A stretch of 64,000 bases of DNA from Candidatus Sericytochromatia bacterium. Its GTDB lineage: Bacteria > Cyanobacteriota > Sericytochromatia > UBA7694. The translations under genes and the position numbers were made by a program. The stretch spans positions 299,074-363,073 of the forward strand of contig CAWCRG010000017.1 of the NCBI GenBank assembly GCA_963797915.1, read 5' to 3'. Shown one piece after another: positions 1 through 61,989 of the stretch; the stretch's first letter is position 1; each line of letters begins with the position of its first letter. The notes below the pieces were generated by a model that saw only the letters and a list, made by a program, of their open reading frames with translations, did not search any database and was not told the origin of the DNA.

Positions 1-932
1 TCTTTGACCTGTCTCGCGAAAACGCTGTCATTATTGGACAGGGGAACGTTGCTGTCGATGTCTGTCGTATTTTATCGAAGAGCATTGAAGAGCTTAAAGC
101 GACAGATATTGCCGATCATGCTTTAGAGGCGCTGGCCGAAAGCAAAATCAAAAATATTTATATGATTGGCCGTCGAGGCCCTGCTCAGGCAGCTTTTACT
201 CCTCAGGAAGCCAAAGAGCTGGGCGAGCTCGAACTCACCGAAGTTGTCATTGACGCCGCCGATCTTGATCTGAGTGAAGCCGATGAAGCTGAGTTAGAGA
301 TGAATCCTGCCAAACGCAAAAATGTGGCCATGATGCGCGATCTGCTCTCCAAATCTCAGGCAGGTGAATTTGCTAACAAGCCCCGCAAACTGCATCTGAT
401 GTTTTTCCAAAGCCCTGTCGCTTTGGAAGGGGACAGCGGTAGCGTTGAACACGTTATTTTAGAACGCAACGCGCTGAGTGGCGAAGCTGGCCAGCAGCGA
501 GCCCGCGGCACCGGAGAAAAGACATCTCTGGACAGCGGCATCTTTTTCCGCAGCGTAGGCTATCGTGGCTTGCCGATGCAAGGGGTTCCTTTTCGCGATG
601 ACTGGGGCGTATTTCATAACGAAGGAGGCCGCATTGAAACCGGTATGTACACCGCTGGTTGGATCAAGCGCGGTCCCTCGGGGATTATTGGTACCAATAA
701 GCCCTGCAGTTATGACACCGTAAAAATGTTGCTGGAAGACGTGGATCAGTTAGAGTGTGCGGTGGCCGATACAGAACCTTTGCGTGCTAAGCTTCAAAGC
801 AAAGCCGTTCGTGTGGTGTCTTATGCAGACTGGAAAAAGATTGATGAGGCAGAGGTTGCTGCTGGCGCCGCTAAAGGTAAATCCCGCAGTAAATTTACCC
901 GTGTAGAAGATATGCTGGCAGTACTGACCTAG
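1..932 (+). CDS. NADPH:ferredoxin/adrenodoxin-type reductase (FprA-like), 5' end lies outside the window
   Basis: ORF is open to position 1 in the frame of the 162..932 ORF. The translation (…IGQGNVAVDVCRIL… GWIKRGPSGIIGTNK…) resembles the C-terminal NADP-binding part of adrenodoxin reductase/FprA family flavoproteins. Confidence 0.65.
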   Translation, partial: FDLSRENAVIIGQGNVAVDVCRILSKSIEELKATDIADHALEALAESKIKNIYMIGRRGPAQAAFTPQEAKELGELELTEVVIDAADLDLSEADEAELEMNPAKRKNVAMMRDLLSKSQAGEFANKPRKLHLMFFQSPVALEGDSGSVEHVILERNALSGEAGQQRARGTGEKTSLDSGIFFRSVGYRGLPMQGVPFRDDWGVFHNEGGRIETGMYTAGWIKRGPSGIIGTNKPCSYDTVKMLLEDVDQLECAVADTEPLRAKLQSKAVRVVSYADWKKIDEAEVAAGAAKGKSRSKFTRVEDMLAVLT

Positions 933-947
933 ACAGGTCCGATAGAA

Positions 948-995
948 AACTGCCCCGTTGCAAGCCGTCTGACTTCTTTTGTCAGATGGCTTTTT
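948..995. terminator. Putative bidirectional rho-independent terminator between convergent genes
   Basis: Inverted repeat agccgtctgac / gtcagatggct followed by a T-run (ctttttt), lying between the stop at 932 (+) and the stop at 1002 (-). Confidence 0.4.
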
Positions 996-1001
996 TAGTC
1001 T

Positions 1002-1934
1002 TTAGCATAAGGGAACAAATGCGTTTCTGGCTTCAAGGCGTTCGATAAGTGGGTCGGCTTCGGCTTTGCGTAAAAGATTTTTAAGCAGGCTGAGTTTGCG
1101 CTGGGTTTCTGAAGTTGCGTTGAGTTCTTCGAGAACCCGCTGTCGTTGTGCAAGAGAAAAAGGCCCCACATGTTGGTTAAGGATCTCAAGGGTGCTGACG
1201 GGGCCAACAGCGACCAATTGCAAAAACTGACACAGCTTATCTTCTAAGTAGTCTAAATCCTTGCTGCTTAAGTCTTGAATATCAAAAAGAGACAGACCAC
1301 TGCCGTGATGAGCAGCCTCATCGGCCAAAATGCCGTGCAGGGCTTTACGCGCTTCTGGATGTTGGCAGGTATTGGCCATTTTTGCGTAGTGCTCTACCCC
1401 CCATCCTTCGAGGACCACTTGTACTAACAGCAATAAACAGCTGCGCTCTCCTGTTAAGATCAGATGGTGGAGAAGCTCTACAAAAGGGTTCGTGGTCAAG
1501 TTTTCTGGGTGTCCCATACTGTTATCAATGAAGTGAAAGTGCCGTGCTTCTTCTGCGGCAAACAGAGAATAAAGCTTTTGCTCATTGAGGGTTGGGGCCA
1601 ATAGGCTCATCTTTGCAGCAAAGCTCATGCCCGCCTTTTCAATGGCGTAAGCCTCACTAAAACGGGCGTAGGCCAGATCATAAGCCACCCGCTCCTGCGT
1701 CAGAGGAGACGCCTCTTGTAAACAACTGACGGCACCCACCTCTAAGTCAGCCAGACTCCACAGGGTTTCAAAAGGAAGCGGCTGACTGCTCGATGTGGAG
1801 TGCCCTTCGGTAAACCGGCGACTTAAAATACGCTCGACTTCAGCCGTGCTCAAATGGTGGGCTTTGGCTAAGGATTGTGCCAGCGTTTCCTGAAGGGTGT
1901 TATTGAGACTGCCTCGCAAGCTGTCAACGCTCAT
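1002..1934 (-). CDS. Ferritin-like diiron-carboxylate protein (putative oxygenase, AurF/desaturase-like)
   Basis: Two E-x-x-H motifs (EEARHF… ADEAAHH) at the spacing typical of diiron four-helix-bundle oxygenases. Its start at 1934 overlaps the upstream ORF stop, suggesting an operon. Confidence 0.45.
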   Translation of the reverse strand: MSVDSLRGSLNNTLQETLAQSLAKAHHLSTAEVERILSRRFTEGHSTSSSQPLPFETLWSLADLEVGAVSCLQEASPLTQERVAYDLAYARFSEAYAIEKAGMSFAAKMSLLAPTLNEQKLYSLFAAEEARHFHFIDNSMGHPENLTTNPFVELLHHLILTGERSCLLLLVQVVLEGWGVEHYAKMANTCQHPEARKALHGILADEAAHHGSGLSLFDIQDLSSKDLDYLEDKLCQFLQLVAVGPVSTLEILNQHVGPFSLAQRQRVLEELNATSETQRKLSLLKNLLRKAEADPLIERLEARNAFVPLC

Positions 1935-2721
1935 AGGAGGGGGTTCCTTCGGGCGACTTTTTTTCTTGTGGCGCAGGCGCTCTTTTTTTTCCGCGCTTTT
2001 TAAAGGTCTTTAGGGCATAGGCGAAGGGCATGGCAAAAGTCATTTCTGCGATGCAGGCCAGTTCGTCTCCCTTTTCCCAGTGGGGGTTTTGTTCGGCAAA
2101 AAAGGCAATGCGTTGATTACCGTCACACATGTCTGAGGTAATGGGGGTGACTTCTGCTTTTAAACAGTCCTTGGTTTTGAGCTGTTGGTTCGAAAATTGA
2201 ATGATGCCGCTTTCGGCGTTGTAGTGTTCGGGGTAAAGGGTCTTTCCAAAGGCGTCAATGATCTGCTGCATGGGTGACGGCGTCGGCTTTTCATGGCGAG
2301 GATAGTGTACCGGGAAGTTATTGGCCATCAGCAGATAAGTCTTGTAACCTTTGGAGATCAAAAACCAATAGAGCGGTGTGAAGGGTTTTTTTAATTTGGC
2401 CAAAAACAGATGCTTTAAAAAGGCCACGCCCAGGGTGCCCTGCCCCCAGTAGTCTTCATGCACCACGGTATCTCCGCTGAACATGCCGCGCACGCGTTGC
2501 CCGCTGATTTCTGTTTCCAGACCCACCAGGGTAGAAAACCCTTGAATGCTGTTGTCTTTGCGATCTTTGAGTAAAAAAACGTGGTCTTTGTGTTGTAGAT
2601 CCTGCTGAAACTGAACAAAATCGATATTGCTGTAATACTGAGAAAACAGACGAAACATATCCGCGATGGTGGTTTGTGATAGAGCGTTAACGGCAACGCC
2701 TTCGGCTTTGAGCTTTTTCAT
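1924..2721 (-). CDS. Putative N-acyltransferase (GNAT-like fold, resembles N-acyl amino acid synthase/OlsB-type)
   Basis: 265-aa ORF whose stop overlaps the downstream gene start. The assignment rests on weak overall resemblance to PF13444-like acyltransferases; no catalytic motif was verified. Confidence 0.35.
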   Translation of the reverse strand: MKKLKAEGVAVNALSQTTIADMFRLFSQYYSNIDFVQFQQDLQHKDHVFLLKDRKDNSIQGFSTLVGLETEISGQRVRGMFSGDTVVHEDYWGQGTLGVAFLKHLFLAKLKKPFTPLYWFLISKGYKTYLLMANNFPVHYPRHEKPTPSPMQQIIDAFGKTLYPEHYNAESGIIQFSNQQLKTKDCLKAEVTPITSDMCDGNQRIAFFAEQNPHWEKGDELACIAEMTFAMPFAYALKTFKKRGKKRAPAPQEKKSPEGTPSYER

Positions 2722-2726
2722 GATGA

Positions 2727-3812
2727 TTATCCAGATATTTTTCGTGGTTGACTGCGTTGCAGCAGCGCGTTTAGGTCTTCTTCGGGCAGGGGAGTCGGGC
2801 TGGCATAAGTGCCAAAGCCCCAGGGTGTGGCCACTTGTTTTTCAAGATGCTGAATGAATTTAATAATGGCCTCGTCTTCTTTGATGGGGTGCTGAAAGCG
2901 AAAACGGATGGTTTCGAAAACCTGCGTATCGCCTTTGGCGAAGTAGTTACCCACTTGCTTCGTGGCCCATAAAATCAGGGGATTTAAGGCACTCAACCCG
3001 GGCAAGTTGGGCTTTTGCTTGGGCGTTACCAACAGGGTCAGGCCTTCGGCTTTGCCCTCGGCGGTGGGGCGTAGCGCAAAAATGATGTGGCAATGCAAAA
3101 AATCGGGGCCTACGGTAACGGAGCCGGTGGTGCCTGCGGTATAACACATGGAGTAGGTCAGGTGGCTGGCGTAAAAACGTTTAAAGAAGCGCAAATACCA
3201 TTTTGTCTCAGGAATGAAGGTGATGTTGTTGAATTGAATACTGTGGGCATTGAGCGCCTGGGTGTCAAAGGCCACGTCGACGGGCAGATTGTGCACCGAA
3301 GTGAAGTGATGGGCGTCGATGGCGTTAATCATAACCACATTGGGGTGGCAGCCTTTGACGAACTGATTCCCGAAGATGGTTTCGACTTCAACCCCTTCGA
3401 GTTCAGGAATCGTATGTACGTCGTGGGTCGGGGTCTCGCCGGTGTAAATCCACAGGGTGTCGTATTTTTCTCGCACAGGATGATGCTTAATTTGGGCCTG
3501 AATACCCGGTGATTTGCGGCAGGGAATATCCACCAATGCGCCCTGATCGTCATATTTCCAGTGATGAAAAAAGCAGCGAAGCCCCGTGCCGTCTACTTTT
3601 CCCTCGGCCAGATGCGCTCCCATGTGCGGGCAATATGCATCCACTGCGCGCGCTACACCATCTTCACCGCGATAGACGGCCAATTCTTTCCCCAAAAAAT
3701 TAAGATGTTTGACCTGACCTTTTTTGAGGTCTTTTGATTTCATTGCCCAATACCACGTCTCGACGACGCTCTGGGGCTGATTAAATACTTTTGTACGGGT
3801 GAGTGCGGACAT
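2727..3812 (-). CDS. Rieske [2Fe-2S] non-heme iron oxygenase, alpha-subunit type
   Basis: Rieske motif CPHMGAHL…17 aa…CFFHHW (C-x-H…C-x-x-H) in the N-terminal third. Length and layout resemble PrnD/KshA-like single-component Rieske oxygenases. Confidence 0.8.
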   Translation of the reverse strand: MSALTRTKVFNQPQSVVETWYWAMKSKDLKKGQVKHLNFLGKELAVYRGEDGVARAVDAYCPHMGAHLAEGKVDGTGLRCFFHHWKYDDQGALVDIPCRKSPGIQAQIKHHPVREKYDTLWIYTGETPTHDVHTIPELEGVEVETIFGNQFVKGCHPNVVMINAIDAHHFTSVHNLPVDVAFDTQALNAHSIQFNNITFIPETKWYLRFFKRFYASHLTYSMCYTAGTTGSVTVGPDFLHCHIIFALRPTAEGKAEGLTLLVTPKQKPNLPGLSALNPLILWATKQVGNYFAKGDTQVFETIRFRFQHPIKEDEAIIKFIQHLEKQVATPWGFGTYASPTPLPEEDLNALLQRSQPRKISG

Positions 3813-3887
3813 TCAAACCTCTTTTGGGGCAACTTTTGGGTAGGACTCACGATATATTGTAGTATATAGGCGTTGTTTATGTGAAAA

Positions 3888-5159
3888 TTGCGTCAATGTT
3901 ACCGCTTTGTTAAACAAAGTAAGGATGATGAAAAAATGTTAGAACAAAATGCTCCCGTTCAGACGACTCAGGTGCCTCCAGCGACGCTTAAGGCGCCAGG
4001 GCCTTTTGCTGAGCATCCTAAAACCTATAAAAAAATTGCTTTAAACCTTAAACGTAACCACAAGCAAGACAATACCGATGCCTTAGATGCGCTTTCAGAT
4101 CGCTTTGATTATGCGGCCTGTGCTGATCAGTACTGGAACCCCGAAAAATTCTCATTGCTTTACGGTACGCCCCTTTGGCACGAAGCGACGGCATCTCAGC
4201 GAGTCATTCTCAATCAGCTGTATTGGGTAGGTTATTATTCACAAATTATCTCAGCAGAGATTGCCACTATTTTTTTGAATCAGACCGCCGCTGCCGGTCT
4301 CTACGGCATTGAGGATTTTCGTATCGTCTGCGATACCTTAGACTTTGAGTCCCATCAGGAGCGGGCGCATATTCACGCTTTTAAAACGATTTCAGACGCC
4401 ACTGAAAACGCTATCTTTGGGGAGCGCATGTTTAGCTACCCCATGAAAAACTTTGCCTCTGAAACCATTATTTATCAAAACACCAACCCCTTTAAAAGTG
4501 CCTGGAAAAAATTTCAGCTCCACTACTTTGCCTATCTCTCTTCTTCAAACGCTTTTTTGGCCAGTCAGTATCTCACCGTGAGAGGCATGCGCACGCTAAA
4601 CGGTAAAATTGTACAGCACCAACTCAGTCAGTTTTACGACAAGCATCCCGATCAGGCCAATGCCCCGATTCCGGCTCAAATTAGCTATCATCACTTTTTA
4701 GACGAGTCTTATCACTTTAATAGTTCAACGCTGATCGGTCATGAGGTGGTCAAAAGCCTGAAGCCGCCGACGGCCTTTGAAAAGTACGTTGCCAATTTAG
4801 CAGTCAAAGGCTGTCAGCGGGATCATTATGCCTTCAACTGTTCTGTGAACGGTATTTTTTGGTACGAGCCCGCGGTGTTTGGCACCATTTACAAGATCTT
4901 ACGCAGCCAGGTCTTTGGCTTTTCGCGTGCTGAAGCCCTGGCGATGATGGAGCGTTGCTTTTGCCAGGAAAATGAAGGCGTTCACGAGGCTTTTAGCACC
5001 CATCAGGTCGCGCGTGAGTCTTATGCACAATATCTCTCGGATCTGCCTTTTTTAACCCCTGAAAACCGAGCAGTTACCCTGATGAAGCAATCCGATATTC
5101 CTGGCTATTTGCGTACCAATCGCCGCACTTTTGCGCGATTTAAGCAGGGAGTGGCCTGA
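3888..5159 (+). CDS. Ferritin-like diiron oxygenase, AurF/CmlI-like arylamine N-oxygenase family (putative)
   Basis: Motifs ESHQERAHIHAF and LDESYHFN (E-x2-H / D-E-x2-H) as found in AurF-type diiron enzymes. An alternative start at 3936 (ATG) is preceded by AGGA. The stop overlaps the next start (ATGA). Confidence 0.5.
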   Translation: MRQCYRFVKQSKDDEKMLEQNAPVQTTQVPPATLKAPGPFAEHPKTYKKIALNLKRNHKQDNTDALDALSDRFDYAACADQYWNPEKFSLLYGTPLWHEATASQRVILNQLYWVGYYSQIISAEIATIFLNQTAAAGLYGIEDFRIVCDTLDFESHQERAHIHAFKTISDATENAIFGERMFSYPMKNFASETIIYQNTNPFKSAWKKFQLHYFAYLSSSNAFLASQYLTVRGMRTLNGKIVQHQLSQFYDKHPDQANAPIPAQISYHHFLDESYHFNSSTLIGHEVVKSLKPPTAFEKYVANLAVKGCQRDHYAFNCSVNGIFWYEPAVFGTIYKILRSQVFGFSRAEALAMMERCFCQENEGVHEAFSTHQVARESYAQYLSDLPFLTPENRAVTLMKQSDIPGYLRTNRRTFARFKQGVA

Positions 5160-5452
5160 TGCCTGAGGTGAGACATACCCTGCATTTTAAAAATGCACCG
5201 TCGATGACGGTGATCGAAGGCGAAAGCCTCTCTGAATCCCTGGACGTCATGAACACCCCGATTTTATTTGGTTGTCGCACCGGCATTTGTGCCACCTGTC
5301 TGGTCCGTGTGATTTCAGGCCAGGAATCCCTGCCGCCGCTTTCTGAAGAAGAGTCTGAAGTTTTGGAGCTAGAAACCGATGATCCAGACTGCCGTTTGGC
5401 CTGTCAGTTACACTTGTCGGGAGACGTAACCCTGGAATATGTGGGTAAATAA
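5159..5452 (+). CDS. [2Fe-2S] ferredoxin
   Basis: C-x4-C-x2-C…C pattern (CRTGICATC…C); 97 aa; translationally coupled (ATGA overlap) to the upstream oxygenase gene. Confidence 0.75.
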   Translation: MPEVRHTLHFKNAPSMTVIEGESLSESLDVMNTPILFGCRTGICATCLVRVISGQESLPPLSEEESEVLELETDDPDCRLACQLHLSGDVTLEYVGK

Positions 5453-5462
5453 GTGAATACTA

Positions 5463-6515
5463 ATGAACGCTGAACCTGTTTCTGAACCCGTTAGCCACAA
5501 ACACTTTTGGTATATTGCTTGCCAGTCTCACGAGCTGGGAGAGCAAAAGCCGATTCAACGCACGATTCTCGACGAGTGGGTTGTGCTTTTTCGCGATGAA
5601 GAGGGGCAGGCCGTGGCGCTGCAAGACCGTTGCCCGCACCGAAACTTTAAATTGTCTGAGGGATATTTGCAGCAAGGTCAGCTTCAGTGCGCTTACCACG
5701 GCTGGGTGTTTGACGGCCAGGGGCAAGTCATCGCGATTCCTTCGGAGAGTCATGACTTTAAACCCCGTAAAACCCGCTGTGCTAAATCTTTTGAAGTCCT
5801 TGAACAAGATGACTTTATCTACGTGCGCCTGGCCCGCCACCCGGAAATGGACGCGCCCCCCTTTGTCATGCCCCATTACAAAGAAAAAGGCTATAAAACG
5901 GTACGCCTGTTTAATGTCTTTGAAAATGACGTGACCAATTGTGCCGAAAACTACGTCGATGTTCCCCATACCGTCTTTGTGCACGATAAAATTTTTCGGG
6001 TCAGTCGCGACGAAAAAGTAGAGGCCACGGTGACCCGTAAAGCCGGCTCTGTTTATATTGACTACCGAGATGAAACCGATAATATGGGCTGGTTTTCGTT
6101 TTTTTTAAATCCTAAAAAACAACCCATTGTCCACAAAGACGCTTTTCATAGCCCCAATGTCACGAGTGTCGAATATATTTTTTCTCCGGGCAAAAGTTTT
6201 TACATTAGCTCTCACTGCACACCGGTCAACGATCGCTTAACCCACGTCTATACTGACTTGACCTATCAATTTGGTCCCCTGTTTAATTGGGCCGCCGGCC
6301 CGATTGTTCGCTATCAGGGCCAAAGTGTGATTGACCAGGATATCAAAGTTCTCAATACCCAGATGGAGGTGATTCAAAAGTATGGGGTAAAGTTTAGCCA
6401 TTCTAACGCAGATATTGTTCATATTCTGATTGAATCGCTCCGCCACGCCATTGATAAAGGCCAGAACCCGTTGACCCTGAGCGAGCAAACCCATGACTTC
6501 CGTTTCTGGATTTAG
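5463..6515 (+). CDS. Rieske [2Fe-2S] non-heme iron oxygenase (second, distinct family member)
   Basis: Rieske motif CPHRNFKL…CAYHGW, 350 aa, immediately downstream of the ferredoxin. Confidence 0.8.
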   Translation: MNAEPVSEPVSHKHFWYIACQSHELGEQKPIQRTILDEWVVLFRDEEGQAVALQDRCPHRNFKLSEGYLQQGQLQCAYHGWVFDGQGQVIAIPSESHDFKPRKTRCAKSFEVLEQDDFIYVRLARHPEMDAPPFVMPHYKEKGYKTVRLFNVFENDVTNCAENYVDVPHTVFVHDKIFRVSRDEKVEATVTRKAGSVYIDYRDETDNMGWFSFFLNPKKQPIVHKDAFHSPNVTSVEYIFSPGKSFYISSHCTPVNDRLTHVYTDLTYQFGPLFNWAAGPIVRYQGQSVIDQDIKVLNTQMEVIQKYGVKFSHSNADIVHILIESLRHAIDKGQNPLTLSEQTHDFRFWI

Positions 6516-6524
6516 GGGGCCGTT

Positions 6525-7250
6525 ATGTTAGTCGCGATCACCTTCGGCTTGCTTTTTTTATGGTTATTGACCGCTGCGGCTGAGCGGGCGCAATTGCGTC
6601 AGAAGACCCTGTTTGAGTGGGTCTTAGACAGCAGTAACTTAACCATCCAGGGCACCCTGATTCCGCTATTGCAAACGGGCCTGCTTTTTGGCGCGCTTGC
6701 TTTTATCTGGCCCGAAGGGCGTGGATTCCTGAACATAGAACCCTTTTGGGGCTTCGCTCTCAATTTTTTTATGGTGGACTATTTATACTACTGGAACCAC
6801 CGTCTCTTGCACCAGCGGTCACTGTTTCCCCTTCATGTGGTGCACCATACGGTAAAGCATATGGATGTGTTTGCCACCTCTCGCAATAGTTTGATCACCA
6901 GCTTTTTTATTGTGTACCTCTGGGTGAATGGCTTTTTATTGTACGTGACGGATCTCAACAGGGGCTTGCTATTGGGCATGAGTGTGTCGGCAGCCCTGGA
7001 TATTTGGAAGCATGCCTCGCTCGGCAAGCGTCACCCTCAGCTTCAGCGCCGTTTGTCTCAGGCGGGAATCATGACGCCACTGGATCACGCCTGGCATCAC
7101 GCTCAGCGTTTAAACAAAAATTATGGGGCCAATCTGAACTGGTATGACAAACTTCACGGCACGTATTATGCCAGTGATACCTATCCAGAACGTATGGGTG
7201 TAAAAACCGCCTTAAGGCCCTGGCAGAAGCTCTTGTTTCCTTTCTCATGA
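6525..7250 (+). CDS. Fatty acid hydroxylase / sterol desaturase superfamily membrane protein
   Basis: Histidine boxes WNHRLLH, HVVHH and HAWHH within a hydrophobic membrane protein, typical of the FA_hydroxylase family (PF04116). Confidence 0.75.
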   Translation: MLVAITFGLLFLWLLTAAAERAQLRQKTLFEWVLDSSNLTIQGTLIPLLQTGLLFGALAFIWPEGRGFLNIEPFWGFALNFFMVDYLYYWNHRLLHQRSLFPLHVVHHTVKHMDVFATSRNSLITSFFIVYLWVNGFLLYVTDLNRGLLLGMSVSAALDIWKHASLGKRHPQLQRRLSQAGIMTPLDHAWHHAQRLNKNYGANLNWYDKLHGTYYASDTYPERMGVKTALRPWQKLLFPFS

Positions 7251-7888
7251 CCCTTTTATCTCGGTTATTGGCGCTCTTTCCTGCATCGGTGGTGCTACTC
7301 ACTGTTCTGGCTCTGGGTCTTGCCCTTAGCCCTGTTTCACTGCTGTGGCGAATCGTGGGGGCTTTGACTTTGCCCTTCATTCTCTATCTTTATCCGGTCA
7401 TGGTTTATCGTTTATTGACTTACTTTAAGCCGTTGAACACCCCTTTGCGTGAAGAATTAACGGGCAACCATTACAGCCACTGGTGGGGCAGTCACCAGGT
7501 GCAGCTGATTTATTTGGTGCTGCCTGTGCTGGAGCGCTTTTTACGGGTGATGCCCGGCGTTTACAGTGCCTGGCTAAGACTCTGGGGCGCAAAGATTGGC
7601 CAACAGGTCTATTGGACGCCCAATGTCGAGGTTCATGATCGCGCATTGCTGCAGCTCGGAGACGGCGTATTACTGGGGCACGAAGTCAAGCTGGTGTCTC
7701 ATGTGGTGATGCCTCATCGACAGCATCTAAGGCTTTACGCCAATCCGATTATTATTGGCGATCGGTGTTTTATTGGTGCGGGTTCTGTCCTGGGGCCGGG
7801 CGTGCGAGTTGATGCACAGCAGGTTTTACCCGTGCGCACCGAAGGGCGCATTAATCAGCGTTTCCAACGCTTTGAGAAAACCCCTTGA
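7247..7888 (+). CDS. Membrane protein with a hexapeptide-like C-terminal segment (possible acyltransferase)
   Basis: Two N-terminal hydrophobic helices. A C-terminal IGDRCFIGAGSVLGPGVRV segment resembles left-handed beta-helix hexapeptide repeats. Start and stop codons overlap the neighbouring genes. Confidence 0.3.
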   Translation: MTLLSRLLALFPASVVLLTVLALGLALSPVSLLWRIVGALTLPFILYLYPVMVYRLLTYFKPLNTPLREELTGNHYSHWWGSHQVQLIYLVLPVLERFLRVMPGVYSAWLRLWGAKIGQQVYWTPNVEVHDRALLQLGDGVLLGHEVKLVSHVVMPHRQHLRLYANPIIIGDRCFIGAGSVLGPGVRVDAQQVLPVRTEGRINQRFQRFEKTP

Positions 7889-9525
7889 TCTTAAGTTCTC
7901 TTTTACAGGGCTATACCGGCTACGCTTACCGGCGGTGGCAGCATGCTTTAAAGCACCCGCAACAGGCCCAGCAGCGCACGCTTCAGCAGATCCTTGCCTT
8001 ACAAGCGCGCTTGCCTCAGCGTAAAGGACGCTGGGGTAAACGGCAAAAGCTTCAGGCGCTGCTTGCCCACTTGCGTCAGCTGCCCTTGCAAGATTATGAG
8101 GCCTTGCCAGAGCTGTCCCCATTAACCCATGATCCCCCACTGTTTTATGAGCTCACCAGTGGTTCCAGCGGCGCGAAAAAGCGCATTCCTTACACCCGCC
8201 CCTTGCTCAAGAGCTTTACCCAGATGTTCTTGTGCTGGGCCCATGATATTTTAGTGACCTTACAGCAACAGGGCAGACCTTTTGCCGGCGGACAGGTGTA
8301 CTTTAGCGTGTCTCCTCAGTTTCATGAGCCATCGACCCATGTGGACAGGGGACTGATTGATGACAGTGATTACCTGACCGGGTTGAGTGCGCGACTGTTT
8401 CAGCGCTTTCGGGCGGCTCCCAATACCCTGCGCCACCTACAGCAGCCGGCTCACTTTTGGGATGTGCTGGCCCTGGCACTCTTGCGAGCCCCCCAATTGG
8501 AGGTCATTTCGGTCTGGTCCCCCAGTTTTTTGCGGGTGCTTCAAAGCCATATACGTCAACATGGTGAGCGTTTGTCGGGGTTATTGGCGGAGCCTGAGTT
8601 GCATTATGAAGGCCTTTGTTTTGCCCTGCCCGTGCCCGCGCCCGCTCGACAGCGGCGCTTAAAAGAGACGCTGCTGTGGCTCGCGCATCAAGACCGTCAA
8701 CAACCTCAGCCTCCTGTGCCTGTCTGGGTGTGGGCGCAGTGTTTTCCTCACCTCAAACTGATTTCTGCCTGGGGGGCTGAAAATGCGGCCCGCGACTTTG
8801 CTGCTTTGCGGGCCGACTTTTCGTTTGCGCATGTGCAAGAAAAGGGGCTATTGGCTACTGAGGCTCCCCTCACGATTCCTTCGGAGCAATGTGGGGGGTT
8901 CTTACCTTTACCCCAGGAGGTTTTCTACGAGTTTATCCCTCTTGATGGTCAGGGACAGCCGATACTTTCACGTCAGTCCTCAGAGCAGTCTCAGCCCCTG
9001 CTCTTACATGAGTTGACCCCTGGCGAAGCCTATGAAGTGGTGATTAGCCAAAAGTCGGGGTTGCTGCGCTATCGCTTAAAGGATCGTGTGCGGGTGACTG
9101 CTCTGTGGGGGCTTACGCCCCATTTGCGTTTTGAGGGGCGCAGTGAGGCCCTGTGTGATCTCGTAGGTGAAAAGCTCAACGCCGCCTTTGTGGCGCAGGG
9201 GGTGCAGCAATGTTATCCGACGCAGCGGGTCTGTGTCATTCCTCAGCTGTCCCCAGCGGGCTACGTGTTGGTCGCAGAGCAGGCGCTCAATGCCGCAGAC
9301 CTTGAATCCTATTTTTTGACCTCGCCCCATTATTGCAACGCGCGAAGCTTAGGCCAGCTTCAGCCGCTTCGCTTGCAGGTTATTCCTCAACTCCACAGTC
9401 ATTTACATCAATTTTTTGTGAGCCAACGCCACATGAAGTTAGGGGATATTAAAGATCAGTTGCTTTATTATCGGGAGCAAGACGGTCAGCTGCTGCAATA
9501 CCTTTTGGCAGCGGCGCATCTTTAA
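7885..9525 (+). CDS. GH3-family acyl-acid amido synthetase-like adenylating enzyme
   Basis: YELTSGSSGAKKRIPYT resembles the GH3 (PF03321) phosphate-binding motif. 546 aa; start overlaps the upstream stop (ATGA). Confidence 0.55.
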   Translation: MILSSLLQGYTGYAYRRWQHALKHPQQAQQRTLQQILALQARLPQRKGRWGKRQKLQALLAHLRQLPLQDYEALPELSPLTHDPPLFYELTSGSSGAKKRIPYTRPLLKSFTQMFLCWAHDILVTLQQQGRPFAGGQVYFSVSPQFHEPSTHVDRGLIDDSDYLTGLSARLFQRFRAAPNTLRHLQQPAHFWDVLALALLRAPQLEVISVWSPSFLRVLQSHIRQHGERLSGLLAEPELHYEGLCFALPVPAPARQRRLKETLLWLAHQDRQQPQPPVPVWVWAQCFPHLKLISAWGAENAARDFAALRADFSFAHVQEKGLLATEAPLTIPSEQCGGFLPLPQEVFYEFIPLDGQGQPILSRQSSEQSQPLLLHELTPGEAYEVVISQKSGLLRYRLKDRVRVTALWGLTPHLRFEGRSEALCDLVGEKLNAAFVAQGVQQCYPTQRVCVIPQLSPAGYVLVAEQALNAADLESYFLTSPHYCNARSLGQLQPLRLQVIPQLHSHLHQFFVSQRHMKLGDIKDQLLYYREQDGQLLQYLLAAAHL

Positions 9526-9931
9526 AAAAGACCCAGAGCACGTGGGGATACTTTTGCATAAAGGCGTCTTCATACCCTTTTTGTGAGCCCTCCACGACCC
9601 GCCAGTTCATGATAATGGCTTCGCGATAGGTGGCAAAAAAAGACGTGATCGTTTTCGAAACCTGTCCATCTTCTGTCCAGTGAGCGACAAATCCTGACCC
9701 GTAAAAAAGAGCCGATAAGCCCAAAAATGGCCAGGGGTTCTTTTCTCTCCAGAGTTTTTTTATTCCCCAGGGGAGAAAGGGTATCGCGAGCCAATACCCG
9801 AAGGCGTGAATAACCTGCACCCGTGGGTTCAGGTGCAGGTAAAGAAAATAGTCTGAAAAGTTTTCAAAATCCGCGGGTCCATAATGGTGAAGGTGTGTTT
9901 GTCGAAAGGCCCGAGTGGTGGTGCTTTTCAT
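9449..9931 (-). CDS. DUF962/Mpo1-like small membrane protein (putative)
   Basis: 160-aa hydrophobic protein with overall resemblance to the DUF962 family. It overlaps the convergent GH3 gene by 77 bp. Confidence 0.35.
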   Translation of the reverse strand: MKSTTTRAFRQTHLHHYGPADFENFSDYFLYLHLNPRVQVIHAFGYWLAIPFLPWGIKKLWREKNPWPFLGLSALFYGSGFVAHWTEDGQVSKTITSFFATYREAIIMNWRVVEGSQKGYEDAFMQKYPHVLWVFFKDAPLPKGIAAADRLAPDNKATDL

Positions 9932-11385: not shown

Positions 11386-12072
11386 TTATAAAGTTCCCAG
11401 GGCATTTTGCCGCTGCACACGGCATGGATTACCGTAGGCAACACTATTGGCGGGAATATCTTTTGTGACCACACTGCCCATGCCAATCATGCAGTTTTCG
11501 CCAATGCTCACGTTATCTCGCACCACAGTACCTGCGCCAATACGTGTCCCTTTACCTACGTGTACAAAACTACTCAGGGTCACGCCGGGGTTGAGGGTTG
11601 AGAAGTCTTCCAGAATACAGTGGTGTCCCACGCTACTGCTTCTTTTGATATTGACACCAAAGCCCACCCTACTGCAGGCACTTATGGTCACGTTAGGATC
11701 AATGTGTACACCAAACCCGACGTTAGCAGAGCGAGACACCACAGCGGATGGGTGAATAAGTTGGGGAAATTGAGCGTGCTCCAAAGCAAAGACATTTTTA
11801 AAAGCCTCGTATAGAATGGTTTTGACCGGGTGGTGAGATACGGAAAAGGCAAACTGTCCCGCATTGCGCAGACGATCGATATGCTCTGGTGTCAGGGTCT
11901 CCAGGGTGTAAACACGGTGTTGCCAATGGGCGTGTGGTTGGAACTCTGCTCCTATTTTCACAGGAATATTCAGCAAAATGTCAAAGTGAGCCATGCCTTG
12001 AGCGTCCTCAGCCAGTTCCATAAGAACATTGAGTAGGCTTGGATCACAGCCGAGAATGGTTAACGGTTTCAT
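11386..12072 (-). CDS. Hexapeptide-repeat sugar N/O-acetyltransferase, NeuD/PglD-like
   Basis: C-terminal left-handed beta-helix repeats (VGKGTRIGAGTVVRDNVSIGENCMIGMGSVV) and an N-terminal Rossmann-like segment. Start overlaps the upstream stop. Confidence 0.6.
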   Translation of the reverse strand: MKPLTILGCDPSLLNVLMELAEDAQGMAHFDILLNIPVKIGAEFQPHAHWQHRVYTLETLTPEHIDRLRNAGQFAFSVSHHPVKTILYEAFKNVFALEHAQFPQLIHPSAVVSRSANVGFGVHIDPNVTISACSRVGFGVNIKRSSSVGHHCILEDFSTLNPGVTLSSFVHVGKGTRIGAGTVVRDNVSIGENCMIGMGSVVTKDIPANSVAYGNPCRVQRQNALGTL

Positions 12073-12899
12073 CTGGTATTTCTTTTCGTATTATAGATGT
12101 TGAGTGTTTTACTGGGCATAAGGACTCTTTCATGAATCGCCATCAGCTCATGGACACGCTTCAATAAACTTAAATTAGAAGCCTGCTGGGTCCGTTGGGA
12201 GTCAAACCACAAATTATCTTCTAATCCCACCCTTACGCCCAGTCCTTTGGCAATGGCAATGGCGTTGGTTTCTAATTGATAGTTTCCAATGCCTCCCAGG
12301 CTGATAAAGTGATCCTCAGGAAGCTGATCCACCATGGAGCCCAATTGACTCAATTGGGTTTGTGCGCCAAAAATATTGCCAAAGAGCAAATTCCAGTAGA
12401 TGGGATGCTGTAGATTAAACTTTTGAATGAGAAATTTTCCGTAATTGATCATTCCTAAATCAAAACATTCCAGCTCAGGCACAATGCCATAGGCGAGCAT
12501 TTTGGTGAGTAAATCCTGGATCATTTGGGGGGCGTTAACGGAGGGGGTATTTAAAAAATTCAATGAAGAAAGCGTCAACGAGCACATATCTGGATAGAGC
12601 TCCATGACCGCAGAACGCTTTTCCAGCTCGGGAAAGTTTCTGCCCGAAGTACTTAAACAGAGAATAAGATCAGGACAGAATTTATGGAGTCCTGTCATGA
12701 TTTCCTGGTAAATTTCCGGCTCATATGCCGGACTTTCATCGGTGTGGCGGGCATGTAAGTGGGCGATCGTTATGCCTATTTCGTAAGCCTCATGGGTTTG
12801 CTCAATAATTTCGTTGGGCGAAATGGGGACACAAGGGTTTTGCTGTTTGGTGGGAACCATTCCTGTGGGGCAAAAATTTACAATAATTGGGTTAGGCAT
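12069..12899 (-). CDS. BKACE family enzyme (3-keto-5-aminohexanoate cleavage enzyme-like, DUF849)
   Basis: NFCPTGM… motif and a TIM-barrel BKACE-like sequence of 276 aa; translationally coupled to the acetyltransferase. Confidence 0.65.
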   Translation of the reverse strand: MPNPIIVNFCPTGMVPTKQQNPCVPISPNEIIEQTHEAYEIGITIAHLHARHTDESPAYEPEIYQEIMTGLHKFCPDLILCLSTSGRNFPELEKRSAVMELYPDMCSLTLSSLNFLNTPSVNAPQMIQDLLTKMLAYGIVPELECFDLGMINYGKFLIQKFNLQHPIYWNLLFGNIFGAQTQLSQLGSMVDQLPEDHFISLGGIGNYQLETNAIAIAKGLGVRVGLEDNLWFDSQRTQQASNLSLLKRVHELMAIHERVLMPSKTLNIYNTKRNTR

Positions 12900-13462: not shown

Positions 13463-14539
13463 ATGAACGAACCCCGCACAGAGCTTTTGAATCAAACCAC
13501 ACAGCCTCCCGTTGTCCACAAGGTTTTCAACAACTGGCAGGTGGTAACTGAAGGTTGGTATATCTGGGGTGAGGCCAGTCTCCTGGCGCGCAATACGGTA
13601 AAAACCCGCAATATTGGATCCCAAAAGATTTGCGTGTTTCGCGATGATACCGGTGCTGTTCACGCCATGGACGGTTTTTGCCCACATATGGGTGTAGATC
13701 TGGGCATTGGTAAAGTGGTTAATAATCGGGTTCGCTGCTTTTTTCATCACTGGGAATACGGCGCCAACGGTAAATGCCAGCATATTCCCATTCAGCAGGA
13801 GATTCCCAAAAAAGCCTGTTTACGTACCTATGCCTGTCAAGAAAAATATGGGTATATCTGGGTGCACCCCGATAAAGACACGGCGACATCAGTCCTTGAA
13901 ATACCGGGTCTGGCCGGACAAGCAGTGACGGTAAAGCCGGGCAAGGCGTATACCCGCCGTTGCCACCATCATATTACGATGATTAACGGCATTGATCCTC
14001 AGCACCTGAGTACGGTGCACGATATTCATATGAATATGGATGTGGTGATTGAACAAGCCGAGCCGCGATTGGTGGAGATTGTCTTAACAGGACAAATTCC
14101 TGACGTGACCTGGCAAGAGCGGCTGGCTCGTAAAATACTGGGCCCTCAGTACAGCTACGCGATGAAGTATGCCGACGGATGCCTGGCAGGATTGACCCTG
14201 CTTAAAGATGTGCAGTTTTTTGGCCGTAAAAATGGCTTGCCTGAATTGTATATGTTTTTTGCTTACCAGACCGAAGCGCCGGGTAAAACCCGCGTTCAGC
14301 CCATTTTCGTGACCCGTCAGCGCAAAGGCTTCAGCGGTTGGATCATTTCTCAACTGTGTTTGCTTTTTACCCGTATCGGTTTTCAGTCGCTTCAGGGAGA
14401 AGACGGTCAGGTCTATGAAAATATTCGTTTCAGCACCCAAAATCTGCTGGCGGTTGACGCCCCTGTAGCCCGTTATATTCGTTATATTAACCAGCTTAAA
14501 TCTTCTTGCTGGGGTTTTTCTGGCTCAGCTTCACCTTGA
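13463..14539 (+). CDS. Rieske [2Fe-2S] oxygenase, paralog of the 2727..3812 gene
   Basis: CPHMGVDL…CFFHHW Rieske motif. Collinear similarity to the 2727..3812 protein includes the shared CFFHHW(K/E)Y segment. Confidence 0.8.
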   Translation: MNEPRTELLNQTTQPPVVHKVFNNWQVVTEGWYIWGEASLLARNTVKTRNIGSQKICVFRDDTGAVHAMDGFCPHMGVDLGIGKVVNNRVRCFFHHWEYGANGKCQHIPIQQEIPKKACLRTYACQEKYGYIWVHPDKDTATSVLEIPGLAGQAVTVKPGKAYTRRCHHHITMINGIDPQHLSTVHDIHMNMDVVIEQAEPRLVEIVLTGQIPDVTWQERLARKILGPQYSYAMKYADGCLAGLTLLKDVQFFGRKNGLPELYMFFAYQTEAPGKTRVQPIFVTRQRKGFSGWIISQLCLLFTRIGFQSLQGEDGQVYENIRFSTQNLLAVDAPVARYIRYINQLKSSCWGFSGSASP

Positions 14540-14613: not shown

Positions 14614-16629
14614 ATGAAAGCGCGTGTGTTGTTTTGGTGTCTGGGCTTATGTGTGTGGGTGTGTTGTATTGGGTGGAGTGGTTTTGCTGCCTTATCTGCG
14701 TGGTCATCTCCGTTGACAACAGGTACCGTTCGTTTGTATACAGCCCCGGTAGGCACCTCTTTATCGATTCATGAAATTCGCCGCCTGTCAGAAAACCAGT
14801 GGCGTCTGTCAAATCTTAACAAAAGCTTCGGGCTTATTCCTGAACAGGAAGCCTGGCTTCGCGTTCCTGTGTCTTTTGCAACGTCTGGTGCTCCACCCTA
14901 TTATCTGGTGGTGCATCGTGCGAATTTAAAAGAGGTGTGTCTTTTCTCGCAGGCTTTTGAGTCCTGTTCCTCGGCCCGTCATGCTCTGGCCAGGGACTCT
15001 CTCATTTTGGCAACAGAACCTATTTTTTCTTTAGCGCATCTGTTGCCTGAGGAATCGGTCATGTACCTGCGTGTTCGAAGTGCAAATTATATTACTGTGC
15101 CCTTTAGCATTGTCTCTCAGCAGGCCTTAAAGTCTCAGTATTTACTCAAACAGCTGTTGGACTTTAGCGCAATGGGCACTTTTTTTAGCCTGATTTTCTT
15201 AAATCTGGTATTGGCCTTTTGGCTCAAGAAAAGTGTTTATCTTCTACATGCAGGTGCTCTTCTCTGTTGGAGTATTGCCTGGTTCGGGATCGTGATGGGG
15301 TACAGCGCTTTTTTACCTGCGAGCTTTCATGATTTGCTGCTGGGTCAAGGGCCGATTTTTGCACTGCCAGCCATTTTATTTTCTTTGCTTGCTTACCAGC
15401 TCTTTGCGCGTCATGAGTTCAGTCCGAGTTTAAGGCGATGGCTCTGGTTTTTTCCGGTATTTTTGACATTGACCTTTGTCATTTGGCTTTTACCGTTTCC
15501 GCTATTGCACCTGGTACTGATCCGCTTATGGGCGCTGGGCATGATTGTCCTGGTGGTGTTGGGGCTGTTTTTTAGCCTGCGATTCAAGTCGCATTGGTCC
15601 GCGTTTTATCTTTTTTGCTGGCTGGCTTTTTATGGCACAGTATTTGGATTGAATTTATTTCATTTTTCGCTGCTGCCGTTGACGTTGCTTGCTTATAGCT
15701 ATTTTTCGTGGCTGCAGTGCTTGAGTATGTTGACCCTGGTCTTGATTCCGCTGTTGTCGGTGGAAAGCTTAAAGCGTGTCGCCGATGTGTTAATGATGCG
15801 AAACCTTATGTTTGCATTGGATCAGCGGCAAGTTTTAGAAAAGCGAGTAGCAGAACGGACCCTGGCTTTGCAGGCATCTGTGGCGTTGCTAGAAGAAGCC
15901 AATGAGAAGCTCACTGTGCTGAATCGTTCCAAAGCCCGCCTTTTTGTGATCCTGGCCCATGACTTACGCACACCTTTTTTGAGTATGCTAACGCTTCTGA
16001 AGGTGTTTGAGCGGGGGAAAATGAACCAGGCTGGCTTTTTAGAGATGCTGCCGCGTTTAAAAGGTCACCTTGAAAATGTAAGCGCTTCTTTAGACAATAT
16101 GCTCACGTGGATTAAAGCAGAGCTGGAGGGTTACTCTCATCAGCGTCAATCCTTGTCTGTGAAAGATTTGATCACCGAAGTTTATGGCATGTATGAGGAG
16201 CCTGCGCGACAGAAACAGGTTCACCTGAAAATGAAGCAGATCAGTTCAGAGCTGCGGGTGTGGGCCGACCGAAACCATGTGCGGTTGGTGTTGCGTAATA
16301 TTGTGGGCAATGCGCTGAAGTTTACCCCGGCGGAAGGGACGATTGAAATCTGGGCTGAACGGGAAAGCGGCACAGAGATCAGGATCTTGGTTCAGGATAC
16401 TGGAATGGGTTTTTCTGCAGCTGACCTGGAGCGCTTTCACGCCAGAAAGGCTTTAACATCGCAGGCGGGAACTTCAGGTGAAAAGGGGCTGGGCCTGGGA
16501 CTTCAGGCTTGTTTGGCTTATTTAGAAGTCAATCAAGGCACCTTAAGTCTGACGTCTTCCTCGCCGGGCTCCTGTGTTCAGTTTACGCTGCCCTGCACTT
16601 CGGTACGTGATGTCGACACCCAGGACTGA
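14614..16629 (+). CDS. Sensor histidine kinase with 7TMR-DISM extracellular and 7TM domains
   Basis: Signal peptide plus periplasmic domain, seven hydrophobic helices, an H-box (ILAHDLRTPF) and a HATPase_c segment with N, G1 and G2 boxes (NALKFTP… DTGMGF… GLGLGL). Confidence 0.8.
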   Translation: MKARVLFWCLGLCVWVCCIGWSGFAALSAWSSPLTTGTVRLYTAPVGTSLSIHEIRRLSENQWRLSNLNKSFGLIPEQEAWLRVPVSFATSGAPPYYLVVHRANLKEVCLFSQAFESCSSARHALARDSLILATEPIFSLAHLLPEESVMYLRVRSANYITVPFSIVSQQALKSQYLLKQLLDFSAMGTFFSLIFLNLVLAFWLKKSVYLLHAGALLCWSIAWFGIVMGYSAFLPASFHDLLLGQGPIFALPAILFSLLAYQLFARHEFSPSLRRWLWFFPVFLTLTFVIWLLPFPLLHLVLIRLWALGMIVLVVLGLFFSLRFKSHWSAFYLFCWLAFYGTVFGLNLFHFSLLPLTLLAYSYFSWLQCLSMLTLVLIPLLSVESLKRVADVLMMRNLMFALDQRQVLEKRVAERTLALQASVALLEEANEKLTVLNRSKARLFVILAHDLRTPFLSMLTLLKVFERGKMNQAGFLEMLPRLKGHLENVSASLDNMLTWIKAELEGYSHQRQSLSVKDLITEVYGMYEEPARQKQVHLKMKQISSELRVWADRNHVRLVLRNIVGNALKFTPAEGTIEIWAERESGTEIRILVQDTGMGFSAADLERFHARKALTSQAGTSGEKGLGLGLQACLAYLEVNQGTLSLTSSSPGSCVQFTLPCTSVRDVDTQD

Positions 16630-16709
16630 GCCTCACTTCACTTAAGAGAGAGTCAGGTAGCAGTTGAGCAATGAGCGTTTACGAAAAAGAGTGATAGGCT
16701 GTAATACAT

Positions 16710-61200: not shown

Positions 61201-61269
61201 AACGCACTATATAGACTTTTTACTAACCAAAATTAGCGATACTGGTACTGGTAAAAATAGAAGAGTAAT

Positions 61270-61906: not shown

Positions 61907-61989
61907 AGCTTTCTTCTGCCCCATAAAGTTGAGGTTCAATGAGACTTTAATCCACTGCAGGCTTATGCAAGCATAACGAGTTGGTGTGT

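Follow-up and report, generated by a model that had tools for sequence, protein, structure and literature searches.

The window analysed here, a stretch of 64,000 nucleotides from a contig of a Candidatus Sericytochromatia bacterium (CAWCRG010000017.1), opens with an oxygenase-dense gene cluster. We are highly confident that this cluster is the Sericytochromatia-type copy of a conserved orphan class, the "Rieske-containing" clusters built around homologues of the enzyme CylC. From the enzyme families that it encodes we tentatively propose that it makes a fatty acyl amide, a mechanism to which we give slightly less than an even chance; class membership and this explanation, taken together, were judged about evenly balanced between right and wrong.

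Class Membership and Gene Arrangement

Clusters around CylC homologues were classified by Eusebio et al. (2021, BMC Genomics 22:633, PMC8406957), and among them the Rieske-containing type was the most abundant in cyanobacteria (n=36). Clusters of this class encode two to four Rieske proteins and usually a protein of the sterol desaturase family, and have no known natural product; the same sequence cluster holds a few deltaproteobacterial and two Melainabacteria homologues. No carrier protein is encoded nearby, and the class was proposed to act on central fatty acid intermediates. The reference cluster is that of Calothrix brevissima NIES-22 (NIES22_66770-66890), for which their Table S4 lists DUF962, three Rieske, hypothetical, ferritin-like diiron, CylC-like, ferredoxin, sterol desaturase, and acyl transferase proteins, and the orthologues of Synechocystis 6803 are dispersed (sll0263-0266, ssl2559-sll1297, sll1510-1511, and sll1849). 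Literature searches for the years after 2021 gave only this paper and no added function for the Rieske type.

The window encodes a CylC homologue of the Rieske/PriA clade, three Rieske proteins, in keeping with the two to four of the class, and the FA-hydroxylase-family, ferredoxin, ferritin-like, acyltransferase, and DUF962 proteins that are found in Calothrix NIES-22. Open reading frames (ORFs) were scanned for families over window positions 1-27862, and among them there was no gene for an acyl carrier protein (ACP), a FAAL (fatty acyl-AMP ligase), a polyketide synthase (PKS), or a nonribosomal peptide synthetase, so that the CylC homologue stands here, as in the class, with none of these adjoining it. 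An earlier note on this DNA had stated that no such cluster composition was known, which was wrong: what it described was a correct observation of a cluster type already catalogued. What is new here is the spread over 403 genomes and at least six phyla, GH3 as a core member (GH3 is mentioned nowhere in the main text or the supplement text of PMC8406957), the GNAT fold of the "hypothetical" protein, and the Gln-His variant and missing insertion of the CylC-like protein, all described below.

The layout is one of nine genes in two divergent operons, with a neighbouring fprA gene. The ORF map showed a leftward operon of three genes, from 3812 to 1002, and a rightward one of six, from 3888/3936 to 9525, separated by a divergent intergenic region (3813-3935, no strand). 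A promoter-like site for the leftward operon, a consensus match only, lies at 3885-3856. ORFs overlap at 1924-1934, 5159, 7247-7250, and 7885-7888. By the ORF map and profile searches all ten genes named in the earlier note are present with the identities given there, and its four overlaps were confirmed. Its "ten genes in two divergent operons" came down to nine: fprA (1-932, plus strand; 3′ part of 309 codons, the 5′ end being cut off by the window start) encodes a FprA/adrenodoxin-reductase-type NADPH:ferredoxin reductase, and falls outside the divergent pair because it is convergent with the leftward operon and is ended by a terminator-like hairpin (962-992, plus strand; a 12-bp stem followed by a T run), which separates the two. 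Its translated codons match M. tuberculosis FprA (PDB 1lqt/2c7g, E=1.4e-57).

Conservation in Related Loci

The species scan used one genome per GTDB species. The CylC-like clade has members in the genomes of 403 species, which belong to at least six phyla, and 80 loci were taken from the positive genomes. By their labels these include about 40 cyanobacteria, 9 Sericytochromatia/Blackallbacteria, 14 Bdellovibrionota, 4 Myxococcota, 2 Planctomycetota, 2 Gammaproteobacteria, 1 Melainabacteria, and 1 Elusimicrobia. Two further labels may reflect mis-binning rather than true occurrence in those taxa: in L017, labelled as a Sulfitobacter metagenome-assembled genome (MAG), gene order and spacing equal those of the Halobacteriovorax loci L018 and L020, and in L014, labelled as a Flavobacteriaceae MAG, the core operon resembles Bacteriovoracaceae/Halobacteriovorax loci.

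Presence was calculated over the 45 loci that were fully flanked, having 8 kb or more on either side. The ferredoxin gene, following the CylC-like gene, was present in 98% of them, Rieske B in 96%, the FA-hydroxylase in 93%, the left-handed beta-helix (LbH) transferase in 89%, GH3 in 80%, the ferritin-like protein in 78%, Rieske C in 76%, Rieske A in 71%, and the GNAT protein in 67%, while FprA was found within 10 kb in one locus (2%). The order CylC-like, ferredoxin, Rieske B, FA-hydroxylase, LbH, and GH3 was collinear in 35 of the 45, and tblastn mapping and unsupervised clustering of all ORFs both returned the gene families of the window as the recurrent ones. This arrangement is well beyond what chance would produce, with the same genes recurring from phylum to phylum. 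The picture drawn in the earlier note, of a biosynthetic-type, oxygenase-dense cluster with its own ferredoxin, is thus supported, and co-conservation in related genomes is strong; as to its "own redox partners", the ferredoxin holds and fprA does not, the latter being a neighbour and possible redox partner and not a conserved member.

The closest relatives of the window GH3 are found in Sericytochromatia, Melainabacteria, and Blackallbacteria, followed by Bacteriovoracaceae and cyanobacteria. The identical order and orientation of the nine genes was observed in contigs of a Sericytochromatia MAG (62% GH3 identity) and of Blackallbacteria (43%), which also have a third Rieske gene nearby. With its cyanobacterial counterparts the window GH3 shares about 35% identity and the GNAT protein about 29%. 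The CylC-like protein is far more conserved than either, at 55-60%. The cluster also reaches beyond 9525, to a Mpo1-like/DUF962 gene (9449-9931, minus strand) and a third Rieske gene (13463-14539, plus strand), both of which recur in related loci. Other genes join it more sporadically: 17 loci, mostly noncyanobacterial, have a short-chain dehydrogenase/reductase (SDR) gene within the cluster, an amidohydrolase adjoins it in 7, mostly cyanobacterial, and a 2-oxoacid_dh-like acyltransferase is found in 7, mostly of Bdellovibrionota.

The CylC-Like Protein and the Second Soluble Diiron Protein

The rightward operon starts with the CylC-like gene (3936-5159, plus strand), which encodes a dimetal-carboxylate enzyme of the Rieske/PriA clade. 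Its ORF opens at TTG 3888 (423 amino acids), and the lengths of homologues point to ATG 3936 as the probable start (407 amino acids). The AurF profile of Pfam scored 20.3 bits on it (E=3e-4), below the 29.6 cutoff, and PF28091 (CylC-like) is carried by homologues 57-94% identical to it, those named being from cyanobacteria, Sericytochromatia, Melainabacteria, and Halobacteriovoraceae. Judged by sequence, the 423-residue "AurF-like" protein of the earlier note would belong to the CylC-like family of diiron C-H halogenases, outside the N-oxygenases.

The diiron enzymes CylC and NocO, which place chlorine on unactivated carbons of fatty acyl chains bound to ACP, carry a signature made up of a helix-1 Glu, QExxH, a second-sphere Glu, and HxxDExxH (PMC12101540). 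The window protein carries QERAH and HHFLDESYH, and E108, Q141, E142, H145, H253, D256, E257, and H260, that is, eight of the nine signature positions, are invariant in 82 of 82 clade members. At the ninth position, that of the canonical second-sphere Glu (equivalent to NocO E252), all 82 have Gln (Q227), and this is the sole position reported as variable by the authors of the signature (PMC12101540). The next residue is His in 78 of the 82 (H228 in the window) and Tyr in the canonical FAAL-ACP-PKS-linked homologues. In the Rieske-cluster clade the Q227-H228 pair may stand for a changed metal site or for another outcome of the reaction.

For the canonical side of the comparison we used two FAAL-ACP-CylC-PKS homologues from cyanobacterial plasmids (loci L084 and L085). 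To homologues linked to FAAL, ACP, and PKS the window protein is 26-30% identical by tblastn and 28-32% by global alignment; with its cyanobacterial, Myxococcota, and Planctomycetota relatives it shares 55-60%. An insertion of about 45-65 residues in the canonical, ACP-dependent homologues is missing from the Rieske-cluster clade. Nothing pointing to an ACP-tethered substrate was found, FAAL and ACP being encoded neither in the scanned ORFs of the window nor in the recurrent gene set.

The leftward operon ends with a soluble ferritin-like diiron-carboxylate protein (1002-1934, minus strand; 310 amino acids), which matches Pfam Ferritin_2 exactly at the cutoff; the profile was matched by all 20 of the homologues tested. 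The ligand set E94, E129xxH132, E176, and E206xxH209 is invariant in the alignment and forms a classical four-carboxylate, two-histidine diiron site. In Table S4 of Eusebio et al. its counterpart is the row of sll0265 ("ferritin-like diiron protein"). Its family profile gave no significant match to PDB sequences, the best being a designed diiron protein (E=0.011). That this family and the CylC-like one might be recent paralogues was rejected, as the profile-profile comparison gave a probability of 1%, with no detectable kinship. Of the two AurF-like diiron oxygenases of the earlier note, one is CylC-like and the other of the Ferritin_2 type.

Rieske Oxygenases, Ferredoxin, and Membrane Hydroxylase

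Rieske oxygenase A (2727-3812, minus strand; 361 amino acids; Pfam Rieske E=2.6e-23) is of the alpha-only type, and its translation shows the motifs CxH...CxxH and D-x2-H-x4-H. Rieske oxygenase B (5463-6515, plus strand; 350 amino acids; Pfam Rieske E=9.6e-26) has a VanA_C-type catalytic domain (E=1e-8), and the third paralogue, Rieske oxygenase C (13463-14539, plus strand; 358 amino acids; Pfam Rieske E=6e-20), in which the Rieske motifs were also read, is set apart from the core by nonconserved genes. The best PDB relatives are SxtDIOX/SxtT and KshA for A and DdmC (E=4e-23) for B, so that the closest solved relatives, DdmC, SxtT/SxtDIOX, KshA, and NdmA, are alpha3 monooxygenases that hydroxylate C-H bonds or demethylate. 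The best NCBIfam match of all three was the sterol 4beta-methyl monooxygenase SdmA, at 63-84 bits against a cutoff of 600. NCBIfam matches to aromatic dioxygenases all lay at 17-37 bits against cutoffs of 100-830, with no equivalog-level match, and no beta-subunit ORF, such as an alpha3beta3 dioxygenase would need, is encoded at the cluster. Profile searches assigned the Rieske proteins to no known catabolic dioxygenase family, in support of the earlier note, and their sequences do not appear to indicate PrnD-type chemistry specifically.

Electrons may be supplied by a [2Fe-2S] ferredoxin of 97 amino acids (5159-5452, plus strand; Pfam Fer2 E=1.4e-10), whose gene is translationally coupled to the CylC-like gene. 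The next oxygenase of the operon (6525-7250, plus strand; 241 amino acids) is an integral-membrane diiron hydroxylase/desaturase of the FA_hydroxylase ("sterol desaturase") family (Pfam E=7.7e-21), with the His boxes HRLLH, HVVHH, and HAWHH and three hydrophobic segments. Its best NCBIfam match was OlsE (NF052566), at 58.5 bits against a cutoff of 475, so that it belongs to the superfamily, as judged by the FA_hydroxylase profile and the His boxes, and not to the OlsE equivalog.

GH3 Amido Synthetase and Acyltransferases

The rightward operon ends with a GH3-family adenylating amido synthetase (7885-9525, plus strand; 546 amino acids), in which both the N-terminal domain (PF03321, E=1.9e-10) and the middle domain (GH3_M, PF23571, E=9e-19) were found, and which matches JAR1 and GH3.x structures in the PDB. 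The three nucleotide-binding motifs TSGSxGxxK, ATE, and YxxxD keep their key residues in 54-55 of 55 cluster GH3s: T91, S92, G93, K99, T325, E326, Y396, and D400 are each kept in all 55 and S94 in 54. OlsH, the only characterised bacterial GH3, joins a free fatty acid to ornithine in an ATP-dependent reaction without ACP or CoA (PMC12493201). It was also the best NCBIfam match of the window protein (NF052613), at 30.1 bits against a cutoff of 620, and the alpha/beta-hydrolase OlsI is absent from the cluster and from the recurrent gene set. Because these best scores are far below the cutoffs, OlsH and OlsE would be at most analogues, and not orthologues, of the window GH3 and hydroxylase. With GH3 present in most fully flanked loci, an amide-linked acyl-amino-acid product, as the earlier note had suggested, is a reasonable reading of the conserved gene.

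The two putative acyltransferases of the earlier note were borne out. One is a protein of 265 amino acids (1924-2721, minus strand) without a Pfam match, which has a GNAT fold, its fold matches including LasI and FeeM; its family profile compared with PDB sequences gave nothing significant (best E=0.65). It is presumed to be the counterpart of the sll0263 "hypothetical" family. The other (7247-7888, plus strand; 213 amino acids) is a membrane-anchored LbH (hexapeptide) acyltransferase, recognised by Pfam Hexapep, with a hydrophobic N-terminal stretch of about 54 residues; its NCBIfam matches (the WcaF family and the Pls/PosA terminal domain) lie below the cutoff.

Proposed Pathway

The following sequence of steps is suggested by the enzyme families. 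The substrate would come directly from primary metabolism, as a fatty acid or fatty acyl lipid not bound to a carrier protein. We favour a lipid because the FA_hydroxylase and LbH proteins are membrane proteins, because Mpo1-like proteins (2-hydroxy-fatty-acid dioxygenase family) recur, two fusions included, and because fatty acyl chains are the substrates of the characterised CylC and NocO; we favour a carrier-free one because FAAL, ACP, and PKS are missing together with the insertion of the ACP-dependent homologues. A reductase, perhaps the FprA encoded next to the cluster, would take electrons from NAD(P)H and hand them to the ferredoxin of the cluster, which would pass them on to the oxygenases. 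The CylC-like enzyme, driven by ferredoxin and dependent on O2, would activate an unactivated alkyl C-H bond for chlorination or hydroxylation, and further hydroxylation or desaturation steps would be added by the three alpha-only Rieske enzymes together with the membrane FA-hydroxylase and the other soluble diiron protein. Where the Mpo1-like protein occurs, 2-hydroxylation followed by alpha-oxidation is possible. GH3 would then adenylate the free carboxylate and form an amide with an amino acid or amine, a step proposed because its motifs are invariant and because OlsH joins free fatty acids to ornithine in this way. The GNAT and membrane-anchored LbH transferases would add N- or O-acyl groups, acyl transfer being suggested for the former because of its fold and its matches to LasI and FeeM. 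What would result is a lipoamino acid or aminolipid that is associated with the membrane, heavily functionalised, and possibly halogenated.

Several observations weigh against this pathway. The class is an orphan one, with no known product, substrate, or activity for any member. The similarity to OlsH and OlsE is remote (30 against 620 and 58 against 475 bits), and an OlsI-type hydrolase is missing. In 12 of 58 loci there is no GH3 gene within 8 kb, and GNAT and Rieske A are absent from about a third of the loci, although some of the missing genes may be dispersed, as they are in Synechocystis. Halogenase activity is predicted, and the chemistry may differ, given the Gln of all 82 clade members at the position of the canonical second-sphere Glu and the His that follows it in 78. 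The SdmA match of all three Rieske proteins would fit an isoprenoid substrate equally well.

As to function in Synechocystis, two transcriptome tables were the only literature found on the orthologues. In one of them the transcription unit TU679, in which ssl2559 and sll1297 follow pilJ and hik39, is 32-fold induced by phosphate starvation and listed as a new phosphate-stress association, with sll1297 annotated as pobA (PMC4195498). It was noted that ssl2559 and sll1297 are the ferredoxin and Rieske B orthologues. In the other, sll0266, the CylC-like gene, is repressed under iron limitation. Both tables, which are weak evidence, could be reconciled with a phosphorus-free lipid but not with a siderophore; that the phosphate-induced unit starts with the unrelated pilJ/hik39 genes also counts against the proposal. 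The most far-reaching form of it is unlikely, though worth stating: the cluster would make a widespread and unrecognised phosphorus-free membrane lipoamino acid, induced by phosphate starvation, in which GH3 acts on a free fatty acid, followed by chlorination and/or polyhydroxylation by a carrier-independent CylC-type enzyme, three Rieske enzymes, and two further diiron enzymes. The model organisms Synechocystis 6803 and Halobacteriovorax marinus SJ would be among those that have this lipid.

Alternative Explanations

A live variant of the fatty-acyl-amide pathway is cryptic halogenation, in which a transient chloride would be displaced by a cluster enzyme to form a C-O, C-N, or C-C bond (ester, ring, or cyclopropane), leaving a halogen-free lipid. 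Both fully worked-out CylC-type systems, CylC/CylK and BrtJ/BrtB, use it, and several acyl- or amide-forming enzymes of the cluster could supply the nucleophile. Yet a CylK or BrtB homologue is missing from the conserved set, the halogenase activity of the clade is itself predicted, and a residue near the proposed halide site differs, so that we regard the variant as improbable, if the best placed of the alternatives.

A little less probable still is the tailoring of an isoprenoid lipid. Here the Rieske and "sterol desaturase" enzymes would oxidise a hopanoid, sterol-like, or carotenoid compound, for example from methyl to carboxylate, and GH3 would conjugate the carboxylate to an amino acid. 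This is consistent with SdmA as the best match of the Rieske proteins, with KshA among their closest solved structures, with the relationship of FA_hydroxylase to ERG3/ERG25, with the SDR gene of 17 loci, and with a gene of the 3beta-hydroxysteroid dehydrogenase (3beta-HSD)/epimerase type close by in 6 Sericytochromatia/Blackallbacteria loci. However, the sterol-type matches are far below their cutoffs, the 3beta-HSD-like protein scores best as a sugar-nucleotide dehydratase/epimerase, and the 80 loci share no recurrent cyclase, squalene/phytoene synthase, or prenyltransferase; the characterised enzymes of the CylC family act on fatty acyl chains, and the cluster occurs in Bdellovibrionota, for which hopanoid or sterol synthesis is not known.

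It is also conceivable, though we think it quite improbable, that the genes serve catabolism or detoxification, an exogenous lipid or xenobiotic being hydroxylated or demethylated instead of a product being made. The O/N-demethylases DdmC and NdmA, closest among solved structures to Rieske B, are catabolic, and the amidohydrolase next to the cyanobacterial clusters would suit such a role. On the other hand, genes for thiolases, dehydrogenases, ring cleavage, or transporters are not among the recurrent ones of the loci, the conserved set includes an ATP-dependent amide ligase and two acyltransferases, the gene set is common to phototrophs, predators, and nonphotosynthetic Sericytochromatia, and the CylC-like protein is unusually conserved between the window and its cyanobacterial, Myxococcota, and Planctomycetota relatives.

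The least probable of the four is the N-oxygenated product of the earlier note, a soluble metabolite whose aryl or alkyl amine would be oxygenated by AurF-/PrnD-type enzymes and joined to an amino acid by GH3: the weak Pfam AurF match, a ligand pattern that resembles the 3-His type of AurF, and the conjugation of aryl acids by plant GH3 enzymes speak for it, but the AurF score is below the gathering cutoff and the family is CylC-like (PF28091), with QExxH and HxxDExxH, Gln replaces the equivalent of AurF Asp135 (in QExxH) and stands at the position of the ligand Glu196, no arylamine-making gene (chorismate/PABA enzymes) recurs in the loci, two of the enzymes are membrane-embedded, and the nearest Rieske structures are C-H hydroxylases and demethylases. 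Two other ideas were dropped, namely, a siderophore (N-hydroxylation, GNAT acylation, and amide ligation), in view of the repression of the Synechocystis CylC-like gene by iron deprivation, and a sphingolipid (GNAT as ceramide synthase, with SDR, Mpo1, and a GT21-like glycosyltransferase), as a serine palmitoyltransferase-type gene was not recurrent in the loci.

Mpo1-Like Gene and Downstream Surroundings

The Mpo1-like/DUF962 protein (160 amino acids) is an accessory member of the cluster and scores 22 bits with the Pfam Mpo1-like profile, whose cutoff is 24 bits. A hidden Markov model (HMM) of its family found members in 20 of 82 loci. Two natural fusions were seen, one of 562 amino acids (P0172) that unites Mpo1-like and CylC-like parts, and an ORF of about 709 amino acids from an Elusimicrobia MAG (L047:7824-9950) that groups with the cluster-linked amidohydrolase family and also matches the Mpo1-like HMM; by their sequences, they would tie this small membrane protein functionally to the pathway. 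The GH3 and Mpo1-like ORFs are convergent and their 3′ ends overlap by 77 nucleotides (9449-9525), which is unusual and could be due to a mis-set stop or start or be a genuine antisense overlap.

A YbjN-like gene and a small ORF lie between the Mpo1-like gene and Rieske C, together with genes for a NeuD-like acetyltransferase and a BKACE enzyme. The NeuD/PglB-like hexapeptide acetyltransferase and the beta-keto acid cleavage enzyme (BKACE) form a small overlapping pair (11386-12899), and the best match of the latter was a 3-oxoadipate:acetyl-CoA acetyltransferase, below cutoff; the pair was rejected as a cluster member since it does not recur in related loci. Directly downstream of Rieske C lie two tandem paralogous 7TMR-DISM sensor histidine kinases of 671 and 664 amino acids (14614-18704), and no response regulator adjoining them was identified. 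They are followed by a 2-oxoacid:ferredoxin oxidoreductase of the POR type (18772-21634), with a 607-residue ORF (POR and POR_N) and a thiamine pyrophosphate-binding beta subunit of 364 residues. A POR-type gene is also near the cluster in a related Sericytochromatia contig (L001, 19871-21599); the enzyme is a possible source of reduced ferredoxin, or this may simply be conserved synteny. Far from the cluster, the G+C content dips to 0.38 at window positions 60001-62000, compared with about 0.50 elsewhere, which may mark an island or foreign DNA.

Significance and Comparison with Known Systems

The interest of the cluster lies in the question of its product and in a possible carrier-independent enzyme of the CylC type, which is what biocatalysis groups seek. 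The most abundant context of CylC homologues in cyanobacteria, now found in 403 species genomes of at least six phyla, is still an orphan. The core membership of GH3, the GNAT fold, and the Gln-His variant turn it into a concrete hypothesis, a carrier-free fatty acid that is functionalised at C-H bonds and amide-linked, which is testable in the genetically tractable Synechocystis 6803 and perhaps in Halobacteriovorax marinus SJ. If the lipoamino acid reading is true, the clade would be the first diiron C-H halogenase or hydroxylase acting on a free substrate.

By comparison with AurF and CmlI, the CylC-like protein shares a ferritin-like four-helix diiron fold and His-rich ligands resembling the 3-His type of AurF, and differs in its score below the Pfam cutoff, in the Gln at the equivalents of both Asp135 and Glu196 of AurF, and in a recurrent gene set without arylamine-supplying genes. 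The likeness to CylC, NocO, and BrtJ is closer. PF28091 is found on the close homologues, QExxH, HxxDExxH, and the helix-1 Glu are intact, and those enzymes need ferredoxin, reductase, and O2, which we count as a likeness to the window cluster. Unlike them, the window protein has no ACP or FAAL partner, lacks the insertion, has Gln in place of Glu, and is a halogenase by prediction; the genes for FAAL, ACP, and PKS that accompany the canonical loci are likewise absent from the window cluster.

The Rieske proteins resemble alpha-only monooxygenases (DdmC, SxtT/SxtDIOX, KshA, NdmA, and also SdmA) in having a Rieske and a VanA_C-like domain with D-x2-H-x4-H, no beta subunit, and dependence on ferredoxin. 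The similarity lies mainly in the N-terminal 180 residues or so, with E values of 1e-11 to 1e-23, and below equivalog cutoffs.

For GH3 the closest comparison is the planctomycete OlsH/OlsI pathway to ornithine lipids (Rivera-Najera et al., 2025, J Biol Chem 301:110634). In both cases a bacterial GH3 with the three nucleotide-binding motifs is encoded in an operon with lipid-modifying enzymes, among them a membrane hydroxylase of the FA_hydroxylase family, as OlsE is, and the start of that pathway from a free fatty acid without ACP or CoA was counted as a further likeness. The window enzymes differ from OlsH and OlsE in being nonorthologous, in the lack of OlsI, and in the six or seven oxygenases that stand beside GH3.

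The closest known system remains the Rieske-/PriA-containing class itself, with which the window shares the same families, including the "hypothetical" protein (here with a GNAT fold) and DUF962, and the lack of ACP, FAAL, and PKS. The host differs from that of the cyanobacterial members, Sericytochromatia being nonphotosynthetic relatives of cyanobacteria, and the ferritin-like, GNAT, and Rieske A genes are transcribed divergently from the CylC operon, whereas they are codirectional in most cyanobacterial loci. Compared with the description by Eusebio et al., the operon of the window ends in a GH3 gene, and a gene for an FprA-type reductase adjoins the cluster.

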